A program made the position numbers and the translations under genes. Below, one piece after another: positions 1,628 through 22,480 of a DNA stretch of 22,480 nucleotides. The DNA lies in the NCBI GenBank assembly GCA_031554275.1, contig JAVBKB010000130.1, forward strand, positions 1 through 22,480, read 5' to 3'. The stretch is from Bacillales bacterium (lineage in GTDB: Bacteria > Bacillota > Bacilli > JARBTR01). The stretch's first letter is position 1. Each line of letters begins with the position of its first letter. Under the pieces are notes generated by a model. The model was not told the origin of the DNA. It worked only from the letters and a program-made list of their open reading frames with translations, and did not search any database.

Positions 1628-2140
1628 TTAATACGCTGTCAATGTAAGAACTTCATATCCTTTTAATTTATCCATGCCTTTCAGGTAAGTTAGATCCACT
1701 AAGAAAGCAATACCCGCAACAATACCGCCGAGCTCTTCCACCAACTTAATAGTGGCTTCAATAGTTCCGCCAGTAGCTAATAAATCATCAGTAATAAGGA
1801 CTCTTTGACCAGGCTTAATTGCATCTTTGTGAATTGCTAAGGTTGCTTGCCCGTATTCTAGTTCATAAGATGTTTGGATAGTTTCACGCGGAAGTTTGCC
1901 TTCTTTTCGTACTGGAGCAAAACCAATACCCAACGCATAAGCGACTGGGCATCCGATGATGAAACCACGTGCTTCCGGACCTACAACAAGATCTATTTTT
2001 TTATCAATTGCGAAGATAACAATTTCGTCTGTTGCGAATTTATATGCTTCACCATTATCCATTAATGTAGTGATATCCTTAAAGCGAATACCAGGCTTTG
2101 GCCAATCTTCAACAATCGTAATGTACTTCTTCAAATCCAT
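1628..2140 (-). CDS. apt: Adenine phosphoribosyltransferase.
   Basis: The 170-aa product aligns with Apt over its full length ([21 protein letters not shown]...[26 protein letters not shown], the PRPP-binding motif). It lies 11 bp downstream of recJ, as in the conserved recJ-apt operon. Confidence 0.95.
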
Positions 2141-2151
2141 GTGACTTCCTC

Positions 2152-4548
2152 CTATGATTCAGTAGCATTCATGAGTGATCGAAAAAAATTCGTGAAATCT
2201 TTTTTTGAAGAAAATAATAATTGGTTTTCTAGTTCACTCTTTGCAAGTTGCGACGAGTAACTGGTTGATTCAACAAGATCTTTCTTGGCAACACCTTTCA
2301 CTAAGTTTACAATGCCGTTGTCTATTGTAACAAAACCTAATTCAAAAAACACTTTTAAAATAAATGAAATTGAATCTTTTTTCCAAAGGTTTCGCTTTGC
2401 CAAGTTTTCTGCATGAGCTTGGGCGTTGAATGAATGGTTTTGTGTAAGAAAGGCATACATCCATTTGAACTGATCACGAGTTGGCGGATTTACGAATAAT
2501 TCATCTTTTCTCTTTTTTAAAAATAAGTAGTAGCGAGAGTATTTTGCTTGCGCAAACATTTCTTGAATGAGTTGCTTGCTATTCGGAAAATCGACCAAAC
2601 ATAGGTTTTCTGCTATTTTTCCTGTAGAAAATGTCCCTCGATAGACTTCAACCTCACTATGGATTGAAGGAGGAAGTTGCTGGATGCTCTCTTCATTGAA
2701 AACGACAATTCTTCGTTCGATCGGAATCAAGTTCAGATTGAATTCTGTCAGTGGTAAGCTTCGCCAATCAAAGATTTGCACATGATTACAGGAGATATCC
2801 TGTAAAGTCATTTGGGGAATCAGTTTATTGTTCCATTCATTTATCGAGATTCCCCCAACGATAGATAACTGATCGCTTTGAGAAATCTGTTCAACAATGT
2901 GCCCTTGACCAAATCCAATAAGGTCGATAACACCGGTATCATCAGTAAGTTGTGCTTTGAAATGGTTAAAGTCGGCGCCAACTTTTTTGGATGAAAGCAT
3001 TTCCACTTTTTCAACCAATATTCTTGGTCGAGGATTTCCCCTCCCAAAAGGGGCCAATCGATCTAACAGCTGAATTGTTTTTACAGTGATATCGGCAAGT
3101 TTCACTTTGCAATCAATCGCGATTTTTGATACAAAAATGGCTGGATCGACATTGATCTTTGCTTCATGATTGATCGCTTCACGAAAGGCATCAAGGTTTT
3201 CCATTCGAAGCGAAAGTCCTGCTGCCATTGGGTGTCCCCCGAACCTCGACAGCAGCTTTTCCTGCTCCAAAAGTTGTTGATACAAATTGTAGCCTTCAAC
3301 ACTTCTTGCTGAACCTTTTGCCTCGTTTTTTGCTTCGTCCAAACTGATAACAATCGCAGGATGTGCATATCTTTCAACTAATTTAGACGCTACAATCCCA
3401 ACGACTCCAGAATTCCAGCCGCTTTTGCCAATCACAATAATTGGCCACTGACTAATTGGGAAGGTTTCTTCCACCATAGCAATTGCTTCTTCAGTAATAG
3501 TTAGCACAAGTTCCTGTCTTTGACGATTAATTGCATCTAAATCAGTTGCAATCTCCACAGCTTTTTCTAGGGAGTCTGACATTAATAGCTCAACTGCTTT
3601 ATCAGCGCTTCCCAGTCGTCCAGCTGCATTCAGTCGTGGTGCAAAGCCAAATGCAATCGTTTCCTCATTAATTGTATCCAAAGGGATACCAGCAATCTGT
3701 GCTAAAGCTTGTATCGCAGGGAGTTGGCTGGTTTTCATACATTCCAGTCCTTTGGTAACTATCAGTCGGTTTTCACCATGTAATTCAACAAGATCAGCAA
3801 TAGTTCCTATGGCAGCTAATGTAACACAGTCAGGAAGTGCTTCACCCAAAAGAGCATGAGACAATTTCAAAGCAACACCGGCTCCGCATAGCTCTTGATA
3901 TGGGTAGTTGTCATCGAGTTTAGGATGTAGGATCGAATAGGCGTTTGGCAATTCCGCACCCATTTGGTGATGGTCTGTGATGACAACATCCATACCTAGT
4001 GTCGCTGCTTTGTTCATTTCTTCAATTGCAGCAACACCTGTATCAACTGTGATGAGCAAAGTAACACCCTGATGATGTAATTTCTCTATCGCAGATATGT
4101 TTGGACCATAACCCTCAGAGAAACGATTCGGAATATAGTATGAAATGGTCGAAGCAGAACCCATTGGTTCTATCAAAGCTTTTCCTGAAGCATCTTCCGG
4201 TAGATTAACTGCTGAAGGCATCGCAGTAAGCAACTGGAATGTACGCAATAATATCGCTGTGCTTGTCACCCCGTCAGCATCATAATCACCGAAGATTGCA
4301 ATACGCTCGCCTTTTGCTATTGCATTTTTGATGCGCTCAACCGCAGTCGCCATTTGACTGAATTGAAATGGATCATGAAAATTTTGTTTGTGTACATTGA
4401 GAAATTGTTTTGCTTCATTCAGATTAACAATTCCGCGATTAATAAGCAGAGCCGCAATCAGCTCTGGGATTTTCAATTTATCTACAAACTGCTGCACTAA
4501 TTCAGCATTTGGGTTCATCACTTGCCATTCTGACTTGGCTTGGAGCAT
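2152..4548 (-). CDS. recJ: Single-stranded-DNA-specific 5'-3' exonuclease RecJ. This is the long Firmicutes form with a C-terminal extension.
   Basis: DHH family motifs are present ([30 protein letters not shown]) and the DHHA1 region is intact. The 798-aa length matches Bacillales RecJ. A GAGGTG RBS sits upstream of the ATG at 4548. Confidence 0.95.
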
Positions 4549-4965
4549 TTTGTCACCTCAATCACAGTCTATTATACAATAGGTGTCAGGATAAATAGAG
4601 CATTTTATGGATGATCTATACTGCGCATCCCGAATCCCAACTTGGTAAAAAGAGTTTCTTCCCATAAACTCGCAAGTCACTTTGTCGTTATAAAATCATC
4701 AATTGAAGATGTTGGCTCTCTGCTAGGGGTGAAGGTAAATGATATGCAGCTCGTCTTACTGCTTCGCGACAGATTTCTCTTCGATGGACCAATATCTTAT
4801 TCAAATATCCATAAAAGAACCTACTGATAAACAATCTGATTATACGTATTTAGGAAGACTACAACAAAGTATCCCTGTTGAAGCGCTTTCATCTCAGGAA
4901 CAAACATTTCTGCAAAGACATCAAGAAAAAATCACTACTTAAATGTAGTGACAATTGTTACACTT

Positions 4966-5212
4966 AATCCTGATTACATATAAAGATAACGAAACAAACT
5001 AAACTATGCTACCCACAGAGATTGGATTCTTTCGTTATCTTAAAGCGGAATCAGGATACACAGTGCCGGCTTATGCAAATACTGCCGGATTAAAGAGAGC
5101 TTGTATCGCCATATTCTTCTTCAACATTATTGAGCTAAAACAATTCAACGTATTTCGCTTGTTCCAATTTTATCGAGAGTTTTAAGTTGCATTTCTAACG
5201 ACAATTAGGATA
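4966..5212. repeat. Structured intergenic repeat element, copy B. It has a long imperfect hairpin (arms 4966-4994 and 5030-5058) and a conserved about 40-bp terminal box (5169-5212). It is homologous to the element at 20436-20757.
   Basis: The hairpin consists of a 9-bp helix (AATCCTGAT / ATCAGGATA) and a 12-bp helix (AAGATAACGAAA / TTTCGTTATCTT), separated by an internal loop and closed by a 35-nt terminal loop. The box TTATCGAGAGTTTTAAGTTGCATTTCTAACGACAATTAGGATA is about 90% identical to 20716-20757, and its core matches the reverse complement of 20441-20469. Confidence 0.6.
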
Positions 5213-5217
5213 AGCCC

Positions 5218-6369
5218 TCACCAATTTCTTTCTGCAAAATATCTTTCCATGCGATTCAGGCCTTCAATGAGTGTCTCCATGGCACAAGCATAGGAGACCC
5301 TGAAAAATCCCTCGCCATATTGAGTGAAGGCCGAACCAGGAACGACTGCTACGCCAGCCTTCTTCACTAACTCAAGCGCGAAATCCCATGATGATTGTTT
5401 ACATTGCACAGGGAGTTTTACAAAAAAGTAAAAGGCACCGTCAGGGAATGTCGTTTCTAGTCCCATCTTGGTTAGGCGATCATAGACATATTTTCTCCGC
5501 TCTCTGTAGGCTGTTCGCATTGGAAGAGCATCATCAAACCCTGTTGTCAAGGCAGCAAGAGCGGCATGCTGTGAAATTGAGGAGGCACAGGTCACATTGT
5601 ATTGATGAACTTTAAGCATATGCTGACAAATAGTAGCTGGAGCGAGTAGAAACCCTATTCGCCAACCAGTCATGGCATGAGACTTCGATAATCCGTTGAT
5701 AACAATTGTTTGTTCTTTTAACAAATTAGCAATCGAGAAATGATTGTCAGCAAGCTCACTATAGATTTCATCTGCAAGTACAAATATCTTGTGATCTCCT
5801 AGCACCACTGCAATTTCCTCTAGTTCGGATTGGCTAAGTGAGACACCAGTTGGATTTGATGGGTAGGGCAAGATTATACACTTCGTCTTCTCTGAAATCT
5901 TATTGCGAATTTGTGTTGCGGTAACCTTGAAAGCGGTTTCTCTTGTGTCTAGGTAAACTGCTTTTGCACCACAAATTTGGATGATTGGCTCATATCCAGG
6001 ATAAATGGGGCATGGAAGTAGCACCTCATCGCCAGGCTGTAAAATAGTTCTTAATGCAACGTCAATTGCTTCGCTTGCGCCAGCAGTTACAATGATCTCG
6101 CTATCTGCAAGATAGTTCAAATTGTACTTTTTTTCAAAATAAACACATGCTGCCTTTCGAAGTTCCAGCAGACCTGCATTCATTGTATATGTGGTGTGAT
6201 TTCCTGTTATTGCTCCAACTGCTGTTGTTTTGATATGCTCAGGGGTATTAAAGTCAGGCTGGCCAATGGTAAATGAAATGACATCTGGGATTCCAGCAAT
6301 CATATTAAAGAACTGGCGTATGCCAGAAATCTGAATATCTTTTACTAAAGGGTTTATACGGTCTTCCAT
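5218..6369 (-). CDS. PLP-dependent class I/II aminotransferase (aspartate / PatA-type, possibly N-acetyl-LL-diaminopimelate aminotransferase).
   Basis: The N terminus M..RINPLVKDIQISGIRQF and the Schiff-base lysine in NGLSKSHAMTGWRIG are both typical of this class. The start was set at MEDRINP (ATG at 6369), which lies 4 nt after the TGA stop of the upstream ORF and so indicates an operon. The longer track ORF overlaps that upstream gene. Confidence 0.8.
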   Translation of the reverse strand: MEDRINPLVKDIQISGIRQFFNMIAGIPDVISFTIGQPDFNTPEHIKTTAVGAITGNHTTYTMNAGLLELRKAACVYFEKKYNLNYLADSEIIVTAGASEAIDVALRTILQPGDEVLLPCPIYPGYEPIIQICGAKAVYLDTRETAFKVTATQIRNKISEKTKCIILPYPSNPTGVSLSQSELEEIAVVLGDHKIFVLADEIYSELADNHFSIANLLKEQTIVINGLSKSHAMTGWRIGFLLAPATICQHMLKVHQYNVTCASSISQHAALAALTTGFDDALPMRTAYRERRKYVYDRLTKMGLETTFPDGAFYFFVKLPVQCKQSSWDFALELVKKAGVAVVPGSAFTQYGEGFFRVSYACAMETLIEGLNRMERYFAERNW

Positions 6370-6373
6370 GAGA

Positions 6374-6823
6374 TCACTCTTTCTTAGGTCTTTTTTGAAT
6401 CGATTGCGGGGTTTCTCCAAGTCTGGTAAAGACCGGTTGAACGTATTTTCGTGTTGCACTAGGAATTGTTTCTTTAATCCCAGTATACTTCTGCAAAATA
6501 CTTTTGGCCGTTCGTAAGTTCATCTTTGAGGGCGGGTTTCGAAAGCCTTCGATAGCAAGTCCGAGGTGAGTAAGTGTCTTGAAGTCTTCTTTCGCAGGGT
6601 TGATGTGAAATTGATAACTACCACACTCAACTAAGACTGATGAAGTTTGCTGCACATTTTTCGGGTTATTTGAAAAGTGCAAGCCAATTTTCTTTGCAAT
6701 ACCCATACTAATCATCTTTTCGAGGCTTGCGCCTTTCAATTGGTAGAGGAACTTTGGATTCTGGGCAGTTTTTGCATGTTTATTCACTGTAAAAATTGCT
6801 TCAGATAATTCTTGTACATTCAT
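6374..6823 (-). CDS. Hypothetical 149-aa protein co-transcribed with the aminotransferase. It may belong to the YkyB-like family.
   Basis: A clean ORF whose stop is 4 nt from the aminotransferase start, downstream of a near-consensus promoter. No enzymatic motif was recognised. The family assignment is a guess from neighbourhood memory only. Confidence 0.45.
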   Translation of the reverse strand: MNVQELSEAIFTVNKHAKTAQNPKFLYQLKGASLEKMISMGIAKKIGLHFSNNPKNVQQTSSVLVECGSYQFHINPAKEDFKTLTHLGLAIEGFRNPPSKMNLRTAKSILQKYTGIKETIPSATRKYVQPVFTRLGETPQSIQKRPKKE

Positions 6824-6949: not shown

Positions 6950-6974
6950 GAAATACTATTAGGGAGTGAAAAAA

Positions 6975-7322
6975 ATGTTTGAAAAGATTAAGAGCTTTTT
7001 CAAAAGCAAAACGCAGGATGCAAAAGAATTTGCTGCTAAAGCAGATGATATTCTTGAAGAAAAATTTGACGGCGTCAAAGAAAAGCTTGGCGATGCTAAG
7101 GATGTTGTTGCTGATAAGCTTGGCGATGCCAAAGATGTTATGGCAGACAAGTTTGGTGATGCAAAAGAATTTGCAGCTGACAAACTCGGCGATGCAAAAG
7201 ACGTTGTTGTAGATAAATTTGGCGATGCAAAAGAATTTGCAGCTGACAAAATAGGAGACCTTAAAGACAAAGTAACTGGTAAAGACAACGAAAATGATGC
7301 AACTGATAAAGAAAAACTGTAA
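6975..7322 (+). CDS. Small hydrophilic 11-mer-repeat protein, LEA group-3 / GsiB / CsbD-like, a putative general-stress or desiccation protein.
   Basis: The protein carries about six tandem copies of the 11-residue unit DK(L/F)GDAK(D/E)(V/F)(V/A)A. It is very rich in Lys, Asp and Ala, with no hydrophobic core. The ATG at 6975 has an AGGGAG RBS 9 nt upstream. Confidence 0.6.
   Translation: MFEKIKSFFKSKTQDAKEFAAKADDILEEKFDGVKEKLGDAKDVVADKLGDAKDVMADKFGDAKEFAADKLGDAKDVVVDKFGDAKEFAADKIGDLKDKVTGKDNENDATDKEKL
7083..7274 (+). repeat. Tandem 33-bp coding repeat, about 5.8 copies. It underlies the 11-residue protein repeat in the LEA-like gene.
   Basis: Consecutive units of aagcttggcgatgctaaggatgttgttgctgat, aagcttggcgatgccaaagatgttatggcagac, aagtttggtgatgcaaaagaatttgcagctgac and so on. 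Units 3 and 5 are identical. Confidence 0.85.
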
Positions 7323-18290: not shown

Positions 18291-18332
18291 AAGAAAAAAC
18301 TTTTTGAAAAAATTTCTTAATTGGGGTGCCGT

Positions 18333-20198
18333 ATGAAAAAACCAAGTCTTAAAGAGAGATTGAGTTATCAGTTTGACAAAGTAATGACGAAAGGAACAGT
18401 TGCACTTGTTGGGCTGTTATTTCTGATTACAATTATTGTGATATTAATTGGTGGGTGGATAGCTTCGTGGTTTGTGGATGAAGATGTTTCGATTTGGAAA
18501 TCGCTTTGGTTAAGCTTCAACCATACAATTGATTCTGGGATGCTTGGAGGAGATGAAGGTGGCATATCTTTACTTCTGATCATGTTCATCATAACAATTT
18601 GTGGTATTTTCATTACTAGTATGTTAATCGGGGTGTTGAGTTCTGGTCTAGAATCGAAGTTTACTTCCTTGAGAAAGGGAAAGTCCAGAGTGCTTGAGAA
18701 TGGTCACGTGGTGATCCTTGGATTCAATGATAATGTTTTCCCGATTATTTCTGAACTGTTGATTGCCAATGAGAGTGAGAAGAAGCAGAGCATTGTCGTA
18801 TTTGGTAACGAAGATAAAGAAGTAATGGATGAAGCGATGAGTGCTTATTTTCCTGATACAAAGAATACAACGATTATTTGTAGAAGCGGTGAGACAACTA
18901 GTATTTCGGATTTGTCAGCCTGCTCAATCGAAAGTTGCCGATCAGTTATTGTCAATGAATCAGATGATTTCTCTGTTATCAAAACCATTATTGCTACAGC
19001 CAGTATTATTAAAGATTCGGAGAATTGTAGTGCGTATATGGTTGCGACTGTTCAAAATAAGCGAAATGTCGAGGCAGCAAAAATCGCTGGTGAAGGATTT
19101 GCATATATTCTGTATTTCAAAAGCACAATTGCTCGAATTATTGCACATACTTGCAATCAACCTGGATTGTCTGCTGTTTTTACGGATTTATTCGACTTTG
19201 CAGGGGATGAAATCTACTTTGAAGAATTCCCGCAATTCTATGGAAAAACCTATCAAGAAATTATCTGTTCGTTTGGATCGTCTTCTGTTATTGGTATCGG
19301 AAAAAACAAAGCTACACTTCTTAATCCGAATAATGAAACAGTCTATGATCAGGGTGATCAACTAATCTTGATTGCAGCTGATAATAATGAGTCATCAGCG
19401 CTAGCAAATGCGCCAGCAATCGATGTTAACGCGATCTTGTCAAATACACATCGTACAAATATTACGCCGAAAGAAAATGTTCTTTTCCTTGGCTACAACG
19501 ATTTGTTACTAGAAATAATCGCAGAGCTAGATCATTATGTTGCAGATGGATCGAAGATTTGTATAGCTACGACAGAAGCTTTGCCAGACGAAACAAAGAA
19601 ATTACTAGAAAGCAAATGTAAGAAAATTGATCTTATTCTCAAAGAATGCGACTTATTTACACAAAGTGAGTTGGAAGCACTTGTGAAAGATGCAGTCAGT
19701 ATTGTTTTATTAAGCAATTATGATCAAGACCCTGAGGTATCCGATTCAGAGACATTACTGCTCTTATTACATCTAAGAGATATTTCACTTAAGAAAGGCT
19801 ACAGCTTCTCAATAACAAGTGAGATGATTAAAGTTCGCAACCAGAAACTAGCTAAGGTAGCTCGTGTTAATGATTTTGTTATAAGTAGTAATATTACTGG
19901 CTTGATGGTGGCTCAGCTTTCTCAAAACCAACTGCTATTCAATGTTTTTGAAGATTTGTTAGATAATGATGGTTCAGAAATCTATATGAAACCTGTTGGT
20001 GATTATGTAGATCTAAGCAAGCCTGTTAATTTATTTACAGCTTATCAGGCCGTTGCAAATCGAAATGAAACAATGATCGGTTATAAGCGAATGTCAGGAA
20101 CCAATCAAAGTTATCAAATTACCTTGAACCCAGATAAGCAGGAAGAGATTAAATTTACAGAACAAGATTCATTCATAGTTCTTTCAGAAGAAGGCTGA
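18333..20198 (+). CDS. Two-TM membrane protein with a pore-loop-like segment and two tandem Rossmann-like RCK/TrkA-N domains that lack GxGxxG. This is a CASTOR/POLLUX (DMI1)-related putative ion channel.
   Basis: TM1 (ALVGLLFLITIIVILIGGWIA) is followed by SLWLSFNHTIDSGMLGGDEGG (compare the DMI1 filter ADSGNHA) and then TM2. Two repeats of the V(I/L)(I/F)LG(F/Y)ND..(F/L)..I..EL motif each begin a domain of about 220 aa. Confidence 0.5.
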   Translation: MKKPSLKERLSYQFDKVMTKGTVALVGLLFLITIIVILIGGWIASWFVDEDVSIWKSLWLSFNHTIDSGMLGGDEGGISLLLIMFIITICGIFITSMLIGVLSSGLESKFTSLRKGKSRVLENGHVVILGFNDNVFPIISELLIANESEKKQSIVVFGNEDKEVMDEAMSAYFPDTKNTTIICRSGETTSISDLSACSIESCRSVIVNESDDFSVIKTIIATASIIKDSENCSAYMVATVQNKRNVEAAKIAGEGFAYILYFKSTIARIIAHTCNQPGLSAVFTDLFDFAGDEIYFEEFPQFYGKTYQEIICSFGSSSVIGIGKNKATLLNPNNETVYDQGDQLILIAADNNESSALANAPAIDVNAILSNTHRTNITPKENVLFLGYNDLLLEIIAELDHYVADGSKICIATTEALPDETKKLLESKCKKIDLILKECDLFTQSELEALVKDAVSIVLLSNYDQDPEVSDSETLLLLLHLRDISLKKGYSFSITSEMIKVRNQKLAKVARVNDFVISSNITGLMVAQLSQNQLLFNVFEDLLDNDGSEIYMKPVGDYVDLSKPVNLFTAYQAVANRNETMIGYKRMSGTNQSYQITLNPDKQEEIKFTEQDSFIVLSEEG

Positions 20199-20435
20199 AC
20201 GATACGATTGGATATAAGTCGGGAGAAGCGACAGAAAAGCTGAGATTTGGACAATTTAGCGCAGACGAAATAGTTGCAACATATTGTTCAGATACAATAA
20301 CTGCGACATAAATCCTGTTTGCTTTGAACATCAAAAGGATGTGGAATCCATTTTGGAACAAATTCCGCATTCTTTTTGATTTATCCTATTTATTTCGTAA
20401 TTCGACGAAAAGATTGGTCGATTTCGGAAATATCC

Positions 20436-20757
20436 GCTTTATCCTAATTGTCGATAGAAATGCAACTTATCCTGATTACCGATTAAGATAGCGAATGCTT
20501 TGTGGTAATTTTCCATCTCGCTTTGTTAAAAAAGTGCATAAATATCTAGATATTCGCGCATTTTTTGCCGCGCGAGATGAAAAAATTCCGGACAAATCAT
20601 TCACTATTTTAATCGGTAATCAGGATTAAAACTCGCTAAGATCCCAAATACTTCGTCATAATTTCCTAGGATAGTCCCGCTATCCGTCGTAAATTATTCC
20701 TCGTCTTTGAAAATCTTATCGGAGTTTTAAGTTGTATTTTAACGACAATTAGGATTA
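20436..20757. repeat. Structured intergenic repeat element, copy A (MITE-like). It carries 29-bp terminal inverted boxes (20441-20469 and 20727-20755), a nested 31-bp inverted repeat (20467-20498 and 20598-20628), a 14-bp perfect palindrome and a GC-stem.
   Basis: ATCCTAATTGTCGATAGAAATGCAACTTA (20441-20469) is the reverse complement of TAAGTTGTATTTTAACGACAATTAGGAT (20728-20755), allowing for 2-3 mismatches. The inner arms TTATCCTGATTACCGATTAAGATAGCGAATGC and CATTCACTATTTTAATCGGTAATCAGGATTA pair at 28 of 31 positions. AATATCTAGATATT lies at 20541-20554. Confidence 0.65.
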
Positions 20758-20829
20758 TTTTGATTATTTTCTTTACTTTTAGGCAATTTTTATTAATAAT
20801 AGATACAATCTTTTGAACCGAGGAATCCT

Positions 20830-22431
20830 ATGTATACACAGAAGTTTTATCGACCAAATCAGGTTTTCGAAGACGCCGCAAAGTATGTGAATGACGAATC
20901 TGGAATGGCTTTGATCAAAAAGGCATTTGAATTTGCAGATCGATTGCACAAGGGGCAGTTTCGTAAATCAAGAGAACCATATATTGTGCATCCTACTCAG
21001 GTGGCAGGGATCCTTGTTGAGCTTGAGATGGATCCAGCAACAATTGCTGCTGGGTTTCTTCATGATGTTGTAGAGGACACTGACGCTACACTTGAAGAGA
21101 TTGGTCGTGAATTCAACGAGACGATTATGCATTTGGTTGATGGTGTTACAAAGTTAGGAAAGATCAAATATAAGTCCCAAGAACAAGAACAGGCAGAGAA
21201 TTATCGCAAGATGTTTGTGGCAATGACGAATGATTTCAGGGTCATTATCATTAAATTCGCTGACCGGCTACATAATTTAAGAACACTGAAGCATTTACCT
21301 CCTGAGAAACAAATGAGAATTGCTAATGAGACGCTTGAAATCTTCGCGCCACTTGCAAACCGACTTGGTATTTCCAATATTCAATGGGAATTAGAGGATA
21401 CCGCACTCCGTTTTCTAGACCCATCTCATTATTTCAAGGTAGTCAACTTAATGAAACAGCGAAGCCATGAGCGGGAAAAATATCTCAATATGGTTATGGA
21501 AGAGATCCGCAAAAGCATGGCAGAATCTGATATTGAGGGTGAAGTGTTTGGGCGACCAAAGCATATCTACAGTGTTTATCGGAAGATGGAGATAAAGGGC
21601 AGGCAGTTTGACGAGATTTACGATCTGATTGCAGTTCGTGTTGTCGTTGATAGCATTAAGGATTGCTATGCAGTATTAGGTGCAGTGCACACATTATGGA
21701 CACCAATTAATGGTCGGCTAAAGGACTTTATCGCAATGCCGAAATCAAATATGTATCAGTCTTTGCACACAACCGTGATTGGACCAGAACGCGTGCCATT
21801 TGAAATCCAAATCCGGACTAAAGATATGCACCGTGTTGCACAATACGGTATCGCAGCACATTGGGCGTATAAGCAAGATAAGGATATTAAAAAGAAGAAG
21901 GATGCTGAGAAGAAGCTTGATTTCTTCCGAGAGTTTGTAGAAGTGCAAGAGCAGGATCAGAATGATGATGTTACTTTCTTGCAATCCCTTAAGAATGATT
22001 TGTTCACAGATATGGTCTATATCTATACGCCAAAGGGTGATGTATTTGAGTTGCCGCAGGGGTCAGTGCCAATTGATTTTGCTTATCGGGTTCACTCAGA
22101 GATTGGCAATAAAACGATAGGTGCAAAGATCAATGGAAAGATTGTTCCATTAGATACAGAGCTAAGTACAGGGGATATAATTGAAATTCTTACTGCAAAG
22201 AATTCTTCAGGTCCAAGCCGTGACTGGCTGAAAATGGCGAAGTCAGTACACACACGAAACAAAATTAAGCAGTTCTTTAAGAAGCAAAACCGAGAAGAGA
22301 ATGTTATTAAGGGACGTGATATGCTTGAAAAAGAACTTCGTGATATGGAGATCGAATTCAAGGAAGCATTCGCCTCTGATAATCTAAAACGTATTCTAGA
22401 TAAATATAATTTTCTACACGAAGATGACTGA
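20830..22431 (+). CDS. relA: Bifunctional (p)ppGpp synthetase/hydrolase Rel/RelA. The reading frame is terminated by an in-frame TGA at 22429-22431 (codon 534), after the TGS domain. The protein as encoded lacks the C-terminal ZFD/RIS and ACT/RRM domains.
   Basis: The HD hydrolase motifs (HPTQVAGIL...FLHDVVEDT), the synthetase motifs (RPKHIYSVYRKM...DLIAVRVV...IQIRTKDMHRVAQYGIAAHWAYK) and the TGS domain (VYIYTPKGDVFELPQGSVPIDFAYRVHSEIGN) are all present. Homologues continue for about 200 more residues. The same frame after the TGA encodes YAAIGYSGLNARQVAT. Confidence 0.85.
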   Translation: MYTQKFYRPNQVFEDAAKYVNDESGMALIKKAFEFADRLHKGQFRKSREPYIVHPTQVAGILVELEMDPATIAAGFLHDVVEDTDATLEEIGREFNETIMHLVDGVTKLGKIKYKSQEQEQAENYRKMFVAMTNDFRVIIIKFADRLHNLRTLKHLPPEKQMRIANETLEIFAPLANRLGISNIQWELEDTALRFLDPSHYFKVVNLMKQRSHEREKYLNMVMEEIRKSMAESDIEGEVFGRPKHIYSVYRKMEIKGRQFDEIYDLIAVRVVVDSIKDCYAVLGAVHTLWTPINGRLKDFIAMPKSNMYQSLHTTVIGPERVPFEIQIRTKDMHRVAQYGIAAHWAYKQDKDIKKKKDAEKKLDFFREFVEVQEQDQNDDVTFLQSLKNDLFTDMVYIYTPKGDVFELPQGSVPIDFAYRVHSEIGNKTIGAKINGKIVPLDTELSTGDIIEILTAKNSSGPSRDWLKMAKSVHTRNKIKQFFKKQNREENVIKGRDMLEKELRDMEIEFKEAFASDNLKRILDKYNFLHEDD

Positions 22432-22480
22432 TATGCTGCAATTGGTTATAGTGGATTGAATGCGAGACAGGTTGCAACGA
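22432..22480 (+). other. relA: In-frame continuation of rel downstream of the internal TGA. It encodes the conserved Rel segment and runs to the window edge.
   Basis: The codons read tat gct gca att ggt tat agt gga ttg aat gcg aga cag gtt gca acg, giving YAAIGYSGLNARQVAT. This matches the conserved (D/E)D(L/M)YAA(V/I)GYGG(I/L)..QV motif of Rel proteins, here recalled from memory as B. subtilis EEDMYAAVGYNGITALQVANRL. The frame is open to position 22480. Confidence 0.6.

Follow-up and report, generated by a model that had tools for sequence, protein, structure and literature searches.

An in-frame TGA in a Bacillales rel gene, 50 nucleotides from a contig end, may be a contig-tip artefact in an otherwise ordinary gene

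Rel of B. subtilis, a long bifunctional RSH protein, is available as the crystallised fragment 1-556 (6yxa) and on the starved ribosome (6htq), and the role of H420 in its TGS domain, the tRNA-CCA-sensing histidine, has been described (PMC7797070). Stepwise deletion of the RRM and the ZFD from this protein induces hydrolysis and compromises both synthesis and activation by the starved ribosome, and in the NTD alone (1-373) hydrolysis is nearly lost (PMC7797070). With regard to interrupted genes in general, reassembly and simulation have shown that errors driven by low coverage, platform and assembler account for many of the 'pseudogenes' with internal stops in public assemblies of bacteria (Cooley and Wright 2024, PMC11017572).

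The stretch of DNA analysed here (the window) is one entire contig of 22,480 bases. A rel ORF occupies its last part (20830-22431, forward strand) and encodes a 533-aa protein whose C-terminal end reads ...LDKYNFLHEDD before a TGA. This protein is identical to the database protein P0001, which is encoded on a contig of exactly the same length. The features at the locus are the following.

20830 to 22428, forward strand: rel codons 1-533, encoding the HD hydrolase, the RelA_SpoT synthetase, TGS and the first part of the alpha-helical (AH) domain
22429 to 22431, forward strand: in-frame TGA at rel codon 534, a position occupied by Leu or Met in every homolog; the next base is T (TGAT)
22432 to 22480, forward strand: 16 more in-frame rel codons, YAAIGYSGLNARQVAT, plus one base, reaching the physical end of the contig
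Contig end: last k-mer, ...GGATTGAATGCGAGACAGGTTGCAACGA

The visible part of the protein follows the HD, SYNTH, TGS and AH order of B. subtilis Rel. The N-terminal HD hydrolase domain was recognised by the Pfam profile HD_4 at residues 32-181 (E 2.9e-51, profile positions 1-155 of 156), the synthetase domain by RelA_SpoT (PF04607) at residues 241-351 (E 4.4e-44, positions 1-112 of 113) and the TGS domain at residues 396-455 (Pfam, E 1.7e-24, all 60 profile positions). A His in the TGS domain aligns with B. subtilis H420. Positions 9-79 of the 185 positions of the AH_RIS profile correspond to residues 475-549 of the read-through protein, a match that is cut by the contig end, and the TGA falls inside AH at approximately position 63 of this AH+RIS model. 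The protein also matches residues 398-547 of 6yxa (E 6e-63), and the motif D-[ML]-YAA[VI]GY is present. The closest full-length homologs are 731-732 aa long: P0002 (731 aa) is 78% identical, P0003 72%, and P0004 and P0005 70-71%, whereas named Bacillaceae Rel proteins share 64-65% identity with the rel product. The gene is best explained, as far as its sequence can tell, as an ordinary long RSH bifunctional (p)ppGpp synthetase-hydrolase gene of an uncultured Bacillales-like bacterium. It differs from B. subtilis rel in having a TGA in place of Met532, and its visible part stops, with the contig, before RIS/ZFD and ACT/RRM.

The initial annotation had taken the TGA to lie within rel and not at its natural end, and the sequence that follows bears this out. 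The frame reads on to base 22479, leaving one base over, and in an alignment with 119 homologs every near-invariant column 3' of the TGA is matched (Y+1, A+2, A+3, G+5, Y+6, G+8, A+11, Q+13, V+14 and A+15). Thirteen of the 16 residues are the same as in P0002, on par with the gene-wide 78%, and on this comparison the conserved match past the TGA far exceeds chance. The final bases of the contig, GCA ACG A, match GCA ACG AGA in the relative L002, and therefore Rel coding sequence reaches the last contig base. The TGA aligns with Met532 of both B. subtilis Rel chains (6yxa and 6htq), and the B. subtilis motif that had been given for this segment, EEDMYAAVGYNGITALQVA, is correct.

The column in which the TGA stands is occupied by Met in 91 and by Leu in 28 of the 119 homologs, with Leu in the four nearest, which agrees with the earlier proposal that the stop replaces a Leu or Met codon. 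The alignment passes through the TGA without a gap, and hence a single codon has been altered by substitution, with no shift of frame. The same stop was found at this column in none of the 119 homologs. A comparison with rel of relatives had been called for, and it gave a sense codon in each of the nearest, CTC in L001 and TTG in L002, and no TGA. TGA has nine one-step neighbours, of which TTA alone codes for Leu or Met, and genes of the contig use TTA 137 times; the T-to-G change in TTA that had been put forward, at 22430, would be the most economical origin of the stop.

An open and conserved frame over the 16 visible codons would also be seen if the UGA were recoded, in a programmed or tolerated manner, by near-cognate Trp or by selenocysteine, such that short and full-length Rel are both made. 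UGA is the leakiest of the stop codons, and low-level decoding of UGA as Trp is on record for B. subtilis. We nevertheless consider recoding very improbable. All 119 homologs encode Met or Leu at this site, and none has Trp, Cys or a stop there. The T that follows the stop makes a strong, not a weak, termination context in E. coli. No SECIS-like or readthrough-stimulating element was found in the 49 nt on hand after the TGA; shuffled sequences gave folds as good as that of the 61 nt spanning and following the stop (z -0.34). The contig carries no tRNA gene and gives no match to any Rfam family. Selenocysteine was rejected on the Met/Leu-only column and on the lack of a SECIS-like fold in the 49 nt 3' of the stop, and programmed readthrough on the absence of a stop from every one of the 119 homologs, the nearest with CTC and TTG. 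Of the low-level readthrough that the initial annotation had listed as an alternative, a conserved or programmed form is not supported. A scheme in which a real TGA is partly read through, giving two Rel isoforms from one gene in an uncultured Bacillales lineage, is exceedingly improbable. If true, it would yield a short, ribosome-uncoupled and hydrolase-biased Rel 1-533 and a minor full-length, starvation-sensing Rel, in a ratio set by the efficiency of UGA termination.

The low G+C content of the contig (38.7%) would be in keeping with a code that reads TGA as an amino acid, either Trp (code 4) or Gly (code 25). Such a code is effectively refuted, and we give it next to no credence. Seven other genes end at TGA and would gain only short extensions if it were read through; the other 19 genes, and the other long ORFs, contain no internal TGA; TGG encodes Trp 48 times; the ORFs called under code 11 cover their Pfam profiles end to end; and the homologs have Leu or Met in the affected column and not Trp or Gly. 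The earlier statements that the other long genes lack internal TGA and terminate at it (for example at 6374), and that an alternative genetic code is unsupported, were accurate.

The remaining genes of the contig include recJ, apt, an aminotransferase gene and genes for YkyB, an SPFH protein, PspA, DapH, a SpoVB-like flippase, SecDF and a Castor/Pollux-like channel, all intact as judged by Pfam. The surroundings of rel differ from those in B. subtilis and also from those in the nearest relative. In the latter, L001 (526-6462), recJ, apt, rel and dtd stand in a row; here recJ-apt (1628-4548, reverse strand) is about 16 kb from rel and on the opposite strand. Immediately before rel lies the gene for the 625-aa Castor/Pollux-like RCK channel (18321-20198, forward strand), followed by a 630-bp gap. 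This gap (20199-20829) and a second one (4549-5217) are unusually long, free of ORFs, and have short repeats in common:

5183 to 5213, forward strand; 20439 to 20469, reverse strand; about 20727 to 20757, forward strand: 31-nt motif TAAGTTGCATTTCTAACGACAATTAGGATAA
4967 to 5008 with 5016 to 5057, and 20469 to 20503 with 20592 to 20626 (91% complementary, 88 nt apart): inverted repeats with the termini TTAATCCTGATTAC

The 18-nt core of TAAGTTGCATTTCTAACGACAATTAGGATAA has three matches, where 0.03 would be expected, and the gap repeats belong to no Rfam family. They look like a small intergenic repeat or MITE-like element, one copy of which lies just upstream of rel. Elsewhere on the contig, a 118-aa ORF (6966-7322, forward strand) consists of 33-nt (11-residue) tandem repeats encoding D-K-L-G-D-A-K-D-V-V-A. 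It matches LEA_4 below the threshold (E 2.5e-12, 46.9 bits against a cut-off of 51.1), and its product looks like an LEA or stress-protein-like repeat protein. The ORF antisense to it (6959-7288) matches no family and is probably spurious. The listed ORFs of the aminotransferase (5218-6459, reverse strand) and YkyB (6374-6823, reverse strand) overlap by 86 nt; the GTG start of the aminotransferase at 6459 is probably placed too far upstream, and the true start is likely to be downstream of the YkyB stop at 6374.

The position of the stop on the contig alters how it is to be read. The variant base, 22430, sits 50 nt from the contig end, within roughly the length of a read or k-mer, as would be expected of a tip artefact, and the rel TGA is the sole premature stop in 20 genes, comprising 6,400 codons and 19,260 coding nt. 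The chance that a randomly placed coding lesion falls in the last 52 of these 19,260 nt is approximately 0.003. This coincidence would be improbable if the two events were unrelated, and therefore the stop and the contig break are probably connected causally. Moreover, the contig breaks within rel, a single-copy housekeeping gene, and no repeat was found at its end. An IS insertion just past the contig end was also considered as the cause of the break; Rel coding sequence runs to the last base, and the end carries no repeat. Few reads back the consensus at contig tips, which is the least supported part of an assembly, and low local coverage is common in unannotated draft assemblies of this kind; for error enrichment specifically at contig ends, our literature search yielded no specific citation. 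The organism's closest relatives are uncultured Bacillales represented by MAGs.

The rest of the gene was sought in several ways. With the C-terminal third of P0002 as bait, the protein collection gave no C-terminal Rel of the same lineage; the best match was only 57% identical, and therefore the remainder of rel is absent from this collection, the source assembly included. A short query across the stop recovered no same-lineage fragment, and exact-protein look-ups of the 533-aa product, the channel protein, SecDF and a 97-aa regulator turned up neither a longer contig nor an independent one. Genome contigs contained no match to an exact DNA pattern in which NNN stood for the stop, and a fully degenerate back-translated pattern for D-x-YAAIGYSGLNARQVAT gave none in metagenome contigs. 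Peptide-word scans of genome and metagenome contigs returned just distant Rel genes, about 40% identical and mostly from Sphingomonas, through chance 8-mer matches. A break in the middle of a gene with no end repeat, together with the lack of any same-lineage C-terminal or stop-spanning fragment, is the pattern expected of a locally poor assembly.

There is likewise no sign of decay in the gene. The domain profiles are at full strength across the 533 upstream codons, the 16 codons downstream are equally conserved, and neither relaxed constraint nor further lesions were found in rel or its neighbours, the other 19 genes being intact. Taken together, we favour, with moderate confidence, a wrong base, or else a minor variant left unresolved, at a contig tip with poor support; the rel gene would otherwise be intact and full-length. 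The TGA would then likely not be the organism's consensus, a G having been called for T at 22430 such that the Leu codon TTA was read as TGA; by an alternative route, the assembler would have kept a low-frequency variant path where the graph broke. Two mechanisms fit, namely a miscalled base in a thinly covered tip and a real variant that represents one of two strain paths and broke the graph. The true Rel presumably continues through RIS/ZFD and ACT/RRM on an unrecovered contig. We infer that base 22430 is an error or a minority variant. Some of the evidence would fit other causes equally: a real polymorphism that breaks the assembly graph gives the same picture, and a genuine mutation of very recent date would likewise leave one clean substitution between perfect flanks.

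The main rival is a genuine TTA-to-TGA nonsense mutation, fixed or segregating, that yields a Rel 1-533 with HD, SYNTH, TGS and about two thirds of AH but without RIS/ZFD and ACT/RRM. We regard it as a possible, though the less probable, explanation. The deposited sequence does read TGA, TGAT is not a notably leaky context, comparable truncations are known biochemically (PMC7797070), and the 1-556 construct was stable enough for crystals (6yxa). A polymorphic variant of this kind could itself have ended the contig here. Against it stand the coincidence of the stop with the contig end, the unrelaxed constraint on either side of the stop, a contig with no other pseudogenes and the absence of the stop from every relative in the alignment; in addition, selection filters real nonsense variants in a conserved regulator, while errors go unfiltered. 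The initial annotation had placed a truncated Rel first and had named a sequencing or assembly error merely as an alternative. The former is not supported as the leading reading for a stop 50 nt from a contig end in a single-copy gene; the latter, with the window being a whole contig and the stop at its tip, becomes the favoured one.

Disrupted rel genes in other assemblies are a further point in support of a genuine nonsense allele, and they weigh against a tip error in that a rel that is split, naturally or artefactually, is not implausible. Many public assemblies hold a split rel, and the C-terminal Rel pieces (proteins P0121-P0240) often stand alone on long contigs. Three such loci resemble the present one: in L043 (GCA_041231565.1), L045 (GCA_000269905.1) and L044 (an ENA long-read contig), rel appears as an N-terminal catalytic fragment with a separate 'ACT domain-containing protein'. 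For 20 C-terminal Rel fragments in the database, the first residue is precisely the Met of M-YAAVGY; this reflects gene callers, which resume at the first conserved ATG of the frame. The ORF upstream of the break stops 31 codons ahead of that Met in L043 and 45 codons ahead in L045, whereas in L044 rel is shattered by several frameshifts in the long-read assembly, which looks like long-read frameshift error. A recurrent break at codon 534 was considered and rejected; the breaks lie elsewhere in the three loci inspected.

Were the stop real, the consequences could be gauged from the B. subtilis deletions. The product would probably show raised (p)ppGpp hydrolysis and compromised ribosome-dependent synthesis while keeping its TGS-tRNA contacts, a relaxed-like state. 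The organism would then be without ribosome-coupled stringent control, which would be of some value for understanding (p)ppGpp regulation in uncultured Bacilli. The earlier expectation of a deregulated balance between synthetase and hydrolase was roughly right, but the published effect is raised hydrolysis with compromised synthesis and not a general loss of regulation (PMC7797070). The truncation had also been placed after TGS and the helical region; it does come after TGS, but falls inside AH, at the equivalent of B. subtilis residue 532, to be compared with constructs that extend to 556 and 583. Whichever reading holds, the finding is an ordinary one and nothing new in kind. Its main lesson is cautionary: a stop 50 bases from the end of a draft contig should be counted neither as biology nor as a pseudogene without read support.

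Compared with the known systems, the truncated product would be equivalent to B. subtilis Rel 1-531, 25 residues shorter than the crystallised 1-556 (6yxa) and about 51-52 residues shorter than the delta-ZFD-RRM construct 1-583. Its mass is estimated at about 61 kDa, against about 84 kDa for a full-length Rel of about 731 aa. Like 1-583 (PMC7797070), Rel 1-533 would, if real, be without ZFD and RRM; unlike that designed construct, it would be a natural allele. The locus also resembles the cases of Cooley and Wright (PMC11017572), being a single-base stop in an otherwise intact conserved gene of a fragmented, unannotated public assembly. Their study includes no specific analysis of contig ends, whereas in the present case we implicate the contig tip from the position of the stop.
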